64,000 nt of DNA from Trueperaceae bacterium (lineage in GTDB: Bacteria > Deinococcota > Deinococci > Deinococcales > Trueperaceae). Both the position numbers and the translations under genes were made by a program. This document shows, piece by piece, positions 13,476-16,217 of the stretch. The notes beneath the pieces are model-generated. The model saw only the letters and a program-made list of their open reading frames with translations, searched no databases and was not told the DNA's origin. How positions within the stretch are numbered: the stretch's first letter is position 1; each line of letters opens with the position of its first letter. The stretch is from contig JAXHNB010000001.1 of NCBI GenBank assembly GCA_034520945.1, positions 288,001 to 352,000 of the forward strand. Reading direction: 5' to 3'.

Positions 13476-14068
13476 GATCCCTCCGGGGGGTCGTGGCGCG
13501 CGTACAGCCCGTGCGTGTGCAGGTAGGCCGCCACGGCGTCGGGCACGAGGTAGCGAAGGCTCCGGCCGGCCGCGACGCGGCTGCGGACCAGCGTGCCCGA
13601 CACGCCGAACGGCACGGTCTCGATCTTGGTCGCCGCCCGCGCGAACCGTTCGGGCGGGGGCGGCGCCTCCGTGCCGCGCCGGGGAAACACCACCATCTGG
13701 ACGGCTCGGATGAGCGCCTCGGCGCGGTGCCACGTCTCGATCTCGGCCCAGGCGTCGGCCCCGATCAGGTAGGCGAAGGTCGCTTCGGGGTGGCGTTCCT
13801 GCAGGTCCACCACCGTGTCGTACGCGTAGGACGGGCCGCTGCGCCGGATCTCGTCGGCGCGGGCGCGGAACGCCGGGTGGTCCTGTACCGCCAGGCGGGT
13901 CATCTCGAGCCGGTCGAGCGGCGAGGCGTCGGCGGGCTTGTGCGGCGGGTCGCCGGCCGGCAGGAACCACACCTCGTCCAACGGCAGTGCCTCGCGCGCC
14001 TGCTCCGCCATCAGCAGGTGTCCCATGTGCGGCGGGTCGAAGCGCCCCCCGAACAGCCCGACGCGCAT
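13472..14068 (-). CDS. nadD: Nicotinate-nucleotide adenylyltransferase
   Basis: Contains GLFGGRFDPPHMGH (HxGH), PPHK, GPSY, LIGAD and VSGTLVR. TGATG overlap with the nadE stop. Confidence 0.92.
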   Translation of the reverse strand: MRVGLFGGRFDPPHMGHLLMAEQAREALPLDEVWFLPAGDPPHKPADASPLDRLEMTRLAVQDHPAFRARADEIRRSGPSYAYDTVVDLQERHPEATFAYLIGADAWAEIETWHRAEALIRAVQMVVFPRRGTEAPPPPERFARAATKIETVPFGVSGTLVRSRVAAGRSLRYLVPDAVAAYLHTHGLYARHDPPEGS

Positions 14069-16217
14069 CAGGCGTCTCCGCCGGGCACGTCGGGGACGGC
14101 CGGCCCGCCGTCTCGCGTCGGCGCGCCCTCGAGGTCGCGCACGCGAGCACGGATGGCGCGGAACTGCCACGACCAGGAGGGATCGATCAGGAACGGCCGC
14201 AGGTCGAAGCGGTGGTCCTCCGGGGCGTACGCCTCGGCGTGATAGGCAGGCGTCGACACGGTGGTCTTGTGGCGGTGCGTGGCGTAGGCGCGGAAGAAGC
14301 GCTCGACCTTGTCGGCCACGCGTGAGGGGGGTGTGTCGGTCCAGGTCACGGCCAGGCGCTCGAACGCCTCCAGTGGGCCGTAGCGCTCGATCTTGCGGAG
14401 CCGGCCCAGCTCGCCGAGCTCGGCGTAGGTGAGGCCCATCTCGTCCTCGTCGCGCTGCGCCCCCTCGCCGTCCTCCGGGGTCAGCTCCGCGCTGGGGGCC
14501 GCGCCCAGAATGTCGTCCAGCGCCGTGTAGCCCAGCGTGTCGCGCGCCCATGCCAGGAAGCGCCGCAGATCCACCTTCGAGATGCCACCGATCGGGTTCA
14601 GGTCCGCGGACGAGGTGTCGTACTTGGTGAGGTAGCCCGTCAGGGTCTCGTCCACGTTGGCGGTGCCGACCACCAAGCGCGGGCCCCGCACGCCCCGCAG
14701 GCTGGGGACGCGCTGCGCCAGCAGGTAGGACGCCACCAGGCGGCTGCGGGCCTGCAGGTTCTGCAGCGCCAGGTCGTCCGCCCGGCTGCCCCCTTCGCTC
14801 CGGAAGCGGAGGGGGCGTCCGTGCCGGGAGGGGCGATGGTGCCCGACACGTCCGCCAGCGACGCGACGGCGTCGTCCAGCGTCACCTCCAGATGGTCCGC
14901 CCCGATCTGTTCGGCCAATGCGCGGGCCCGCGCGCGGCTGGCGTCGGTCGACACCTTCGTGGCCAGGTACGCGGTCGTGACCAGGCGTCCCGCCAGCGCG
15001 CGCGGATCGTCGGGGGGATCCTCCCCGGCCGCCAGGCCTAGGACCGCCCGCAGGTCATGGATCACACCGCGCCGGCCGGCGGCGACCTCGCGCGCCAGCA
15101 GGCGGCACATCGAGCCCAGGATCGTCGCCACCGCCGCCGAGTCGCTGCCCCCCGACAGCGCCAGGAAGAACCCGCCGGCCCCGCTGCGGCGCAGGTAGTC
15201 CCACAACCAGCAGGCGGGGCCAAGGGCGATCTCCTCCTCGACCCGGTGCGTGTGGAGCGCGCGGGGCGGGGTGGCGGCGCGGTGGCGGGCCGCGTCCACC
15301 AGGCGCAGGCCGGTCCGCACGCGCGGGTAGGGCTCGGCCATCGACGCTTGCCGCATGCGGGTGGCGCGCGCGCCGCGGAGCGAGCGCACCTGGTCCAGGT
15401 CCACCTCGGCAGTGATCACCTCGACGTCGCGCGGCGAGAACTGCGACCCTTGCGCCACCACGCCGCCGTTCACCACGATCATGGCGCCGCCGTCGAAGTA
15501 CAGGCGCCCCCCGTCGCAGCCCTGCTGGTTGGCGTACAGGTACACGCCGCCGAACCCTTCGGTGGCGGCGCGAATGCGGTGCAGCCGGGTCTCGAGCTTG
15601 CGGAGCTCGTGGTGCGACCCGCTGCCGTTCGCGAAGATCTCGACCCCGTCCAGCCCCAGATCGACGTGGGGGGCGTGGGGCGCGTACAGCTCTTCGCAAC
15701 TCTCAGAAGCGACCACCGTGTCGTCGGTGGACACCACCGCGTCGCCGATCGGGACGGTGTCCTGCCCGGTCCGCGCCCGGATGATGGGCGGCAGCGTGAA
15801 CGGCTCGGTGCGGCGCGCGTGCCGCCAGGCGGCGAACCAGCGGCCCTCGCGGTAGTTGCCGTCGTCCGCCAGCTCGCGTTTGGGGCGGACCAGCAGCACC
15901 CGGCGGTCCAACAGGAACACGCGGGCGTTGTAGCGCACCCCGCGGTGCATGAGCGGCATGCCCACGTCGCACAGGATGCCGTCGGTGAGATCGTCCGCCA
16001 GGAGCTCGGCCAGAACCTCGAACGAGTGCCGCACGGTGTCGCGCTCCAGGAAGTGGTCCTCGCAGCCGTAGCCGGGGATCTCGAGTTCCGGCCCCAGCCG
16101 GAAGCGCGCCCCGCGCGCCTTGGCCTCCTCGATCGAGGCGCGGATGCGGGTCAGGTTGCCGCCGAAGTCAAGCGCCCACTGGTCCAGGTTGCAGGTCGCG
16201 ACCGTCGCGACGTTCAC
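14068..16217 (-). CDS. nadE: Glutamine-dependent NAD+ synthetase (eukaryote-like), split by a 1-nt frameshift at ~14811-14815
   Basis: Nitrilase-like E-K-C triad (GPELE, RPKR, SCEE) and an LSGGSDS PP-loop. The C-terminal half is in a second frame ([21 protein letters not shown]); adding one base to the G5 run at 14811-14815 joins the frames. Confidence 0.9.

Follow-up and report, generated by a model that had tools for sequence, protein, structure and literature searches.

A NADSYN1/Qns1-like NAD+ synthetase gene in a putative salvage operon of a Trueperaceae bacterium and in a clade of bacterial relatives

The nadE locus and its reading frame

The DNA analysed here (the window) is a stretch of 64,000 nucleotides from the Trueperaceae bacterium assembly GCA_034520945.1 (contig JAXHNB010000001.1, here C1, positions 288,001 to 352,000 of the forward strand), and positions below are those of the window unless stated otherwise. 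On its minus strand, at 14068-16217, two adjoining open reading frames (ORFs) correspond to a two-domain glutamine-dependent nicotinamide adenine dinucleotide (NAD+) synthetase, NadE, which resembles eukaryotic enzymes of the NADSYN1/Qns1 type more closely than it does ordinary bacterial ones. The features of the gene are as follows:

14817..16217, minus strand: N-terminal part of nadE, 467 amino acids (aa) as assembled, with the nitrilase-like glutaminase domain followed by the first portion of the synthetase domain (Pfam CN_hydrolase, E-value 3e-33)
14068..14817, minus strand: C-terminal part of nadE, with the remaining NAD synthetase domain and a C-terminal extension (Pfam NAD_synthase, E-value 2e-17); stop codon at 14068-14070
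14811..14815, five G on the plus strand and five C on the coding strand: homopolymer from which one base is missing in the assembly

The GTG start at 16217 aligned with the N-termini of intact homologues. CN_hydrolase spans residues 5-281, and the Pfam NAD_synthase model matched the N- and C-terminal parts alike; the latter is translated from 14817 to 14071 (249 aa). The two parts are separated by a one-base frame change between "...SGTIAPPGTD" and "PLRFRSEGGS...", a point across which intact homologues are continuous.

The frameshift is an assembly error, a base missing from the homopolymer run. Contigs of all four public sequencing runs (X1 to X4; three samples, two studies) carry one extra base there, as read from Logan contigs and not from raw reads, and with this base counted the two parts become a single frame of 716 open codons, the two-domain form of roughly 700 aa. 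A first-pass annotation, made from the sequence alone, had called for repair of the frameshift, and these contigs supply it. In X1, X2, X3 and one contig of X4 the extra base is a G behind 14810; the second X4 contig has a C behind 14813. One salt-pan sample, possibly the source of the assembly itself, gave two of the runs, and the other two are from sediment samples of another study. At 14045, within the neighbouring gene nadD, the X1 contig is one base short relative to the window and the X2 contig, from the same sample, is not; this is probably an error of a single contig.

A real frameshift, either in a pseudogene or as programmed -1 ribosomal frameshifting, would agree with the presence of the same frame change in both copies of the locus in the assembly (see below). 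Against it stand the contigs of all four runs, two of them from another study, with one more base and an open frame. Both halves of the gene are also conserved to their ends without further defect, the searches of the genome returned neither another NAD synthetase nor nadA or nadC, and the 119 other homologues listed in our protein search are all single-frame, most of them 690-730 aa long. As the frame is open in the contigs of every run, we rejected this explanation as very improbable. In all likelihood the gene is intact and encodes a two-domain NAD+ synthetase of 716 aa that belongs to the NADSYN1/Qns1 type.

Similarity of the predicted protein to human NADSYN1

In a search of all solved structures, the N-terminal part matched human NADSYN1 (PDB 6OFB) with 539 bits (E-value 9e-161) and the C-terminal part with 251 bits (E-value 1e-73; chain residues 469-699). 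The best solved bacterial enzyme, NadE of Cytophaga hutchinsonii (3ILV), reached 141 and 48 bits (E-values 6e-40 and 9e-12), and Mycobacterium tuberculosis NadE (3DLA) gave 60 bits with the N-terminal part. The NCBIfam models of bacterial NAD+ synthases, NF002730 (PRK02628) and NF010588 (PRK13981), scored 107 and 96 bits with the N-terminal part, their cut-offs being 473 and 479. The C-terminal part scored 26 bits with NF010588, and the sum over the two parts, which were scanned separately, is still far under the cut-off. Domain-level models were passed by the C-terminal part (TIGR00552, 69.7 bits with a cut-off of 63.65; PF02540, 63.4 bits with a cut-off of 21). Because the 6OFB scores lie far above those of 3ILV and 3DLA, and those of the bacterial NCBIfam models far under their cut-offs, the protein is truly of eukaryotic type. 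This agrees with the first-pass annotation, which had proposed a eukaryote-type enzyme and quoted seven peptides, all of which occur in the minus-strand translation (five in the N-terminal and two in the C-terminal part).

The same annotation had described the match to the yeast and human enzymes as nearly residue for residue. This holds for the motifs but not over the full length, where identity is 55% to a mammal (Tupaia), 54-55% to fungi (Umbelopsis, Actinomortierella and Calcarisporiella; mucoromycote) and 50-56% to red algae; identity to the ordinary two-domain NadE of Chloroflexota is 23-30%. Yeast Qns1 belongs, judged by its motifs, to the same family; likeness to fungi was measured on the genera just named. 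The name and role of Qns1 are cited in the available text of PMC3376133.

In the alignment with 6OFB the glutaminase triad and the second Glu are conserved (C174, E44, K113 and E124, equivalent to human Cys175, Glu45, Lys114 and Glu125), and so is the first constriction of the ammonia tunnel (Y50, Y122, G200 and H202, equivalent to Tyr51, Tyr123, Gly201 and His203). Residue numbers are offset by -1 from the human ones, and 6OFB chain numbering is the native numbering +1. The roles of the catalytic and tunnel-constriction residues in the human enzyme, every one of which is conserved in the window protein, are described in PMC6946656, the available text of which gives Tyr123 and His203 as conserved in eukaryotes and Phe/Pro as found at the same sites in prokaryotes. 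The window protein thus has Tyr and His where prokaryotes are reported to have Phe and Pro, unlike the ordinary bacterial glutamine-dependent NadE (M. tuberculosis 3DLA, NF002730; PRK13981/Cytophaga 3ILV), with which it shares the two-domain layout and the predicted reaction. This "eukaryotic" pair, Y122 and H202, is invariant in all 15 aligned sequences of the bacterial clade described below.

In the synthetase domain, SGGSDS lies at residues 355-360, of which S355, G356, G357, D359 and S360 are invariant in the aligned sequences of the bacterial clade. SGGxDS is the motif of PP-loop (pyrophosphate-loop) ATP pyrophosphatases. By analogy with the human enzyme, whose structure is solved, glutamine would be hydrolysed at the Cys-Glu-Lys triad of the N-terminal nitrilase-like domain, and the ammonia would move via an internal tunnel into the C-terminal PP-loop domain, where nicotinic acid adenine dinucleotide would be adenylated with ATP and then amidated to NAD+. 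The likeness to human NADSYN1 (hsNadE) extends to the two-domain structure, to collinearity over the full length without any group-specific indel of more than 5 columns, and to the triad, the second Glu of the YRE loop and the Tyr123/His203 equivalents. Unlike the human gene, this one lies in a bacterial operon, overlaps its neighbours and has a G+C content of 73-74%, and its product ends in a Pro/Gly/Asp-rich tail of about 20 residues.

The putative salvage operon and its host genome

Three further minus-strand genes accompany nadE:

16214..16840, minus strand: pncA-like gene of the isochorismatase family, putative nicotinamidase and first gene of the operon (Pfam Isochorismatase, E-value 6e-40)
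13472..14068, minus strand: nadD, nicotinate-nucleotide adenylyltransferase (NF000840, 169.7 bits with a cut-off of 150; TIGR00482, 164 bits with a cut-off of 112)
11907..13475, minus strand: pncB, nicotinate phosphoribosyltransferase and last gene of the operon (TIGR01513, 328 bits with a cut-off of 297; Pfam NAPRTase_C)

Each gene overlaps the next one. The stop of the pncA-like gene and the start of nadE form GTGA at 16214-16217, the TGA of nadE and the ATG of nadD have base 14068 in common, and the stop of nadD and the start of pncB (13475) form ATGA. The pncA-like gene scored 61 bits with the NCBIfam nicotinamidase model PRK11609, below its cut-off of 174, and we infer its function from the operon context. 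If it is a nicotinamidase, the operon would cover the Preiss-Handler path in full, with nicotinamide as the starting point and NAD as the product, and NadE would carry out the final chemical step of a translationally coupled nicotinamide salvage operon of four genes (nicotinamidase-like, NadE, NadD and PncB).

The host is described as a salt-loving bacterium. Its genome comprises 10 contigs and 3.47 Mb and is 97% complete. Its RpoB is 81% identical, over the full length, to that of a metagenome-assembled genome (MAG) titled Trueperaceae, and 82% identical to that of a genome of the same family; identity to Chloroflexota and Poribacteria genomes is 47-70% per aligned segment. Contamination, with eukaryotic DNA binned or assembled wrongly into the bacterial genome, would account for the strong similarity to eukaryotic enzymes, but this hardly conceivable origin is ruled out by the position of the gene within a 417,592-base contig, its stop/start overlaps with bacterial nadD and the isochorismatase-family gene, its lack of introns, its G+C content (0.73-0.745, with 0.70-0.745 in the flanks), the same nadE-nadD arrangement in two Trueperaceae MAGs and one genome of the same genus, and the independent contigs that bridge the region. 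The first-pass annotation had argued against contamination on the same grounds of composition, overlap and absence of introns, each of which we confirmed.

Apart from the nadE copies, the only match to PF02540 in the genome is guaA on contig C6, by sequence a GMP synthase. This third match was the sole candidate for a second nadE of another type and was discarded on that account; the search for a further nadE, which the first-pass annotation had recommended, returned just the identical copy in the tandem duplication described below. NadA (PF02445) and NadC (TIGR00078) were not found in this 97%-complete genome; when the same searches were run on 14 control genomes, Deinococcus radiodurans and Lactococcus were also without a match. 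Judged by its gene content, the organism looks like a niacin auxotroph dependent on the salvage operon, which looks like its only route to NAD. Because no other NAD synthetase, NadA or NadC was found, the NADSYN1-type enzyme is very probably essential in this genome.

The single-domain NH3-dependent NadE of Deinococcus-Thermus performs the same last step of NAD synthesis but, unlike the window enzyme, has no glutaminase domain. It was not found in this genome, where it has evidently been replaced. In Text S2 of PMC3376133 (2012), all complete Deinococcus-Thermus genomes have the one-domain enzyme only.

The whole operon lies inside a head-to-tail duplication of 20,287 bp, which self-BLAST detected:

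7206..27488 (contig C1:295206-315488), no strand: second copy of the duplication

The first copy is C1:274916-295200 and ends at window position 7200, and five bases (7201-7205) form the junction. At 99.48% identity, the copies differ by 99 substitutions and 6 indels, which are clustered; of these differences, 52 lie in 20000-21000 and 18 in 24000-25000. There is no difference between the copies over 14000-16300, so that both are without the same base of nadE. This looks either like a genuine duplication of recent date or like two strain variants that the assembler placed one after the other.

Distribution of the enzyme in bacteria

A search of 5.8 billion proteins returned at least 119 other homologues at 58-75% identity, nearly all 690-730 aa long. 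The named ones among those listed belong to Poribacteria, Chloroflexota, Anaerolineales and one Cellvibrionaceae MAG. When one genome per species was scanned with two peptide patterns, by which divergent members may be missed, the gene was present in 209 of 185,579 species. Among the 80 carriers listed, 53 are Candidatus Poribacteria, 24 Chloroflexota and 2 Trueperaceae, and 1 is unclassified. The gene is therefore no singleton; its sequence places it in a monophyletic clade (see below) spread over at least three bacterial phyla. Members of the clade (Poribacteria; Ardenticatenaceae, Promineifilaceae, Caldilineaceae and Anaerolineae of the Chloroflexota; Trueperaceae) resemble the window protein in length (about 695-715 aa) and at 56-72% identity, and are annotated in databases just as "NAD(+) synthase".

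Among 250 other genomes of the host's phylum, the enzyme turned up in 2, each of them from the host's family. Closer to the host, 4 of 10 genomes of the same genus have it (two as fragments at contig ends) and none of the family's 14 other genera. Most relatives have a single-domain NadE; the others have a form with split matches or no match above the level of guaA. For many close relatives, 83-98% complete, any NAD synthase match is no stronger than the weak one given by GMP synthase; these relatives may use a NadE-independent NAD route or a form of the enzyme missed by the Pfam model. The cut-off of NF002730 was exceeded in 5 of 41 genomes, a count that includes one unpublished genome.

In carriers from other groups, the enzyme is the only strong PF02540 match in 4 of 5 genomes. 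A Chloroflexota carrier (G041) also encodes a further NAD synthase, one that matches in split form (98.6 + 52.9 bits, C44:45046-45915), which indicates that the two forms can coexist, and G002, of the same genus as the host, likewise has both.

Among the loci examined, gene order is shared only close to the host. Both Trueperaceae MAGs have the nadE-nadD pair with the isochorismatase gene upstream, and in the same-genus genome nadD follows nadE; at the four Poribacteria and Chloroflexota loci examined, the neighbours are unrelated and no NAD genes adjoin. One nadE-nadD pair of Trueperaceae adjoins a gene (L006:8243-10459, minus strand) for an FG-GAP repeat protein of 738 aa with weak PliI and TcdB_toxin_midN matches, unrelated to the present finding.

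Two copies from the host's genus, L087 (genome G004) and L088 (genome G007), are 54-55% identical to the window protein, have an altered N-terminal motif and sit on branches of 0.64-0.85. Unnamed metagenome proteins, at 68-72% identity, are closer to the window protein than these are. The divergence within the genus reflects either fast evolution in this sub-lineage or two gene lineages in the genus.

Phylogenetic analysis

An alignment of 88 rows was built from the window protein (with X at the break), 24 sequences of the bacterial clade, 25 named eukaryotic sequences (9 red algae, 9 animals, 5 fungi, a ciliate and a lupin fragment), 32 unnamed sequences and, as outgroup, 6 ordinary two-domain NadE from Chloroflexota genomes. 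The unnamed rows are representatives of 50%-identity clusters or near-red-algal matches; an organism was retrieved for 9 of 30 representatives looked up, in each case a eukaryote. A further homologue search, for which the profile was made from seven named eukaryotes, gave mostly insects and vertebrates and 3 fungi, so that named sampling is narrow. A reduced set of 48 rows omits 11 of the 25 bacterial, 2 of the 6 outgroup, 3 of the 9 red-algal, 5 of the 9 animal, 1 of the 5 fungal and 18 of the 32 unnamed rows, including Paraphoma (fungus) and the long-branched animals Necator, Myxobolus and Palaemon. The 88 rows were analysed under LG+G4, and the 48 rows under LG+C20 with posterior mean site frequencies (PMSF) and in a careful LG+G4 run.

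The bacterial clade was monophyletic in each analysis. Its support in the Shimodaira-Hasegawa-like approximate likelihood ratio test (SH-aLRT) was 99 with 88 rows and 98 under C20 with 48 rows, and in the careful LG+G4 run its ultrafast bootstrap (UFBoot) and SH-aLRT values were 98/95. The longest branch of each tree, with support of 100, separates the 82 (or, in the reduced set, 44) NADSYN1-like rows from the Chloroflexota outgroups. Placement among ordinary bacterial glutamine-dependent NadE, which the first-pass annotation had named as the outcome that would refute both origins it proposed, was not seen in any tree. The bacterial clade lies outside bilaterian animals (four to seven rows, support 100) and red algae (100).

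Inside the clade, a grade of Chloroflexota and Poribacteria surrounds the Trueperaceae sequences and the sub-group of the window protein (96-97). This nesting conflicts with the species tree and points to transfer between bacterial phyla. The stem of the bacterial clade is short (0.06-0.10) and that of the window's sub-lineage longer (0.26-0.34). Indels were of no use as markers of direction, as the 25 blocks found are of 1-5 columns each and none is diagnostic. For P0132, which like P0165 and P0139 is an unnamed row adjacent to the root, the nearest atlas clusters are eukaryotic; this counts as a lead but not as proof.

With the Chondrus crispus protein (P0131) as query, red-algal and unnamed matches at 59-78% were followed by dozens of bacterial-clade proteins at 55-59%. 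A lupin entry (1201 aa, 46%) stood near the top, and no animal or fungus was among the 120 matches listed.

Origin and direction of transfer

An ancient inter-domain transfer of the gene is beyond reasonable doubt. The same holds for its lateral arrival in the Trueperaceae lineage, the replacement of the resident enzyme there and the incorporation of the gene into the salvage operon. The first-pass annotation had offered two interpretations, a transfer from eukaryotes to bacteria or a bacterial sister clade relevant to the origin of the eukaryotic enzyme. Both place the gene with the eukaryotic enzymes, and there it groups, with a branch support of 100 against ordinary NadE; neither was singled out by the topology tests.

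We hold, at about even confidence, that a single old transfer from a eukaryote to a bacterium was followed by spread between bacterial phyla as far as Trueperaceae. The donor would have been a deep eukaryotic lineage and not a modern animal, fungus or red alga. From its first recipient the gene would have spread among bacterial phyla (Chloroflexota, Poribacteria) and reached the Trueperaceae lineage of the host, where it would have replaced the single-domain NadE usual in the phylum and joined the salvage operon. We lean to this direction because the NADSYN1-type enzyme is, to our knowledge, universal in eukaryotes and present in only about 0.1% of bacterial species, because the bacterial stem is short and the order within the clade conflicts with the species tree, and because the best LG+G4 trees nest the clade among eukaryotes. 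In the careful LG+G4 run with 48 rows, bacteria and Opisthokonta are sister groups (97/94) within a larger group that also includes red algae and the plant, and the constrained tree with bacteria outside is 25.6 log-likelihood units worse. With 88 rows, the bacteria fall into a group of 59 rows (94), where the branching among them, Opisthokonta, red algae and the plant is an open fork.

Several points count against taking this direction as shown. Under LG+C20 PMSF, the 48 rows give an open three-way split between Opisthokonta, bacteria and the rest, and two unnamed rows attach beside the very long outgroup branch. In approximately unbiased (AU) tests, a topology with the bacteria outside a single eukaryote-like clade was not rejected (p 0.51 for 88 rows under LG+G4, 0.26 for 48 rows under LG+C20 PMSF and 0.125 for 48 rows in the careful LG+G4 run), and neither was a clade of bacteria and Metazoa (p 0.54). 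The outgroup branch, with 1.3-2.7 changes per site on each side, makes the root weak. Furthermore, the 32 unnamed metagenome rows among the 88 are taken as eukaryotic without proof, and the named eukaryotes are mostly opisthokonts and red algae. Finally, the available text of PMC3376133 derives the eukaryotic branch from bacteria, and on that view a bacterial sister clade is to be expected now or formerly.

A possible though less probable account takes the bacterial clade as a surviving sister lineage to the eukaryotic NADSYN1/Qns1 enzymes as a whole, or as a descendant of the donor lineage. The transfer would then have run from bacteria to the eukaryotic stem, and the patchy distribution would be due to loss and later transfer from bacterium to bacterium. 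The AU results and the mixture-model tree, in which the bacteria are one of three deep lineages, are consistent with this, and so is the root-to-tip depth of the bacterial clade, which in the 88-row tree is about that of the slow eukaryotic groups. In the available text of PMC3376133, the eukaryotic enzymes are branch II, their presumed source is the family of ordinary bacterial glutamine-dependent NadE, and their branch is derived from the bacterial one with a bootstrap of 97. The genome set behind that analysis has no occurrence of Truepera, Poribacteria, Caldilinea or Anaerolinea in six supplementary text files. Opposed to a bacterial source are the sister position to Opisthokonta and the cost of the constrained tree in the careful LG+G4 run, as well as the rarity of the gene among species genomes, its scatter across phyla off the species tree and the short stem. 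Transfer from a eukaryote thus stays our preferred direction. Only tentatively would we suggest that, among living prokaryotes, Poribacteria, Chloroflexota and Trueperaceae have the enzymes most closely related to eukaryotic NAD synthetase as a whole.

Significance

The enzyme type itself is known, and we found no published description of its bacterial clade: no paper describing bacteria of the NADSYN1 type turned up in the full-text literature, the coverage of which leaves out most subscription journals. NAD synthetase is essential and an antibacterial target owing to differences between the bacterial and human enzymes, a contrast on which the available text of PMC6946656 builds. Bacteria whose only NAD synthetase appears to be of the human type, including the "eukaryote-specific" residues, show that the residue rule is not a rule of domains. 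Bacterial members of the clade could also serve as easily expressed and probably salt-tolerant stand-ins for the human enzyme.

The large share of Poribacteria (53 of the 80 carriers listed) is an enrichment in sponge symbionts and a lead for gene flow between host and symbiont, of which it is no evidence. The clade was absent from the 2012 data set, and it gives the claim of a bacterial origin in PMC3376133 a concrete test group. If the bacterial enzymes are indeed the closest prokaryotic relatives of the eukaryotic ones, the origin of NADSYN1/Qns1 would be traceable to named bacteria, in which the properties of the ancestral enzyme would be open to study.

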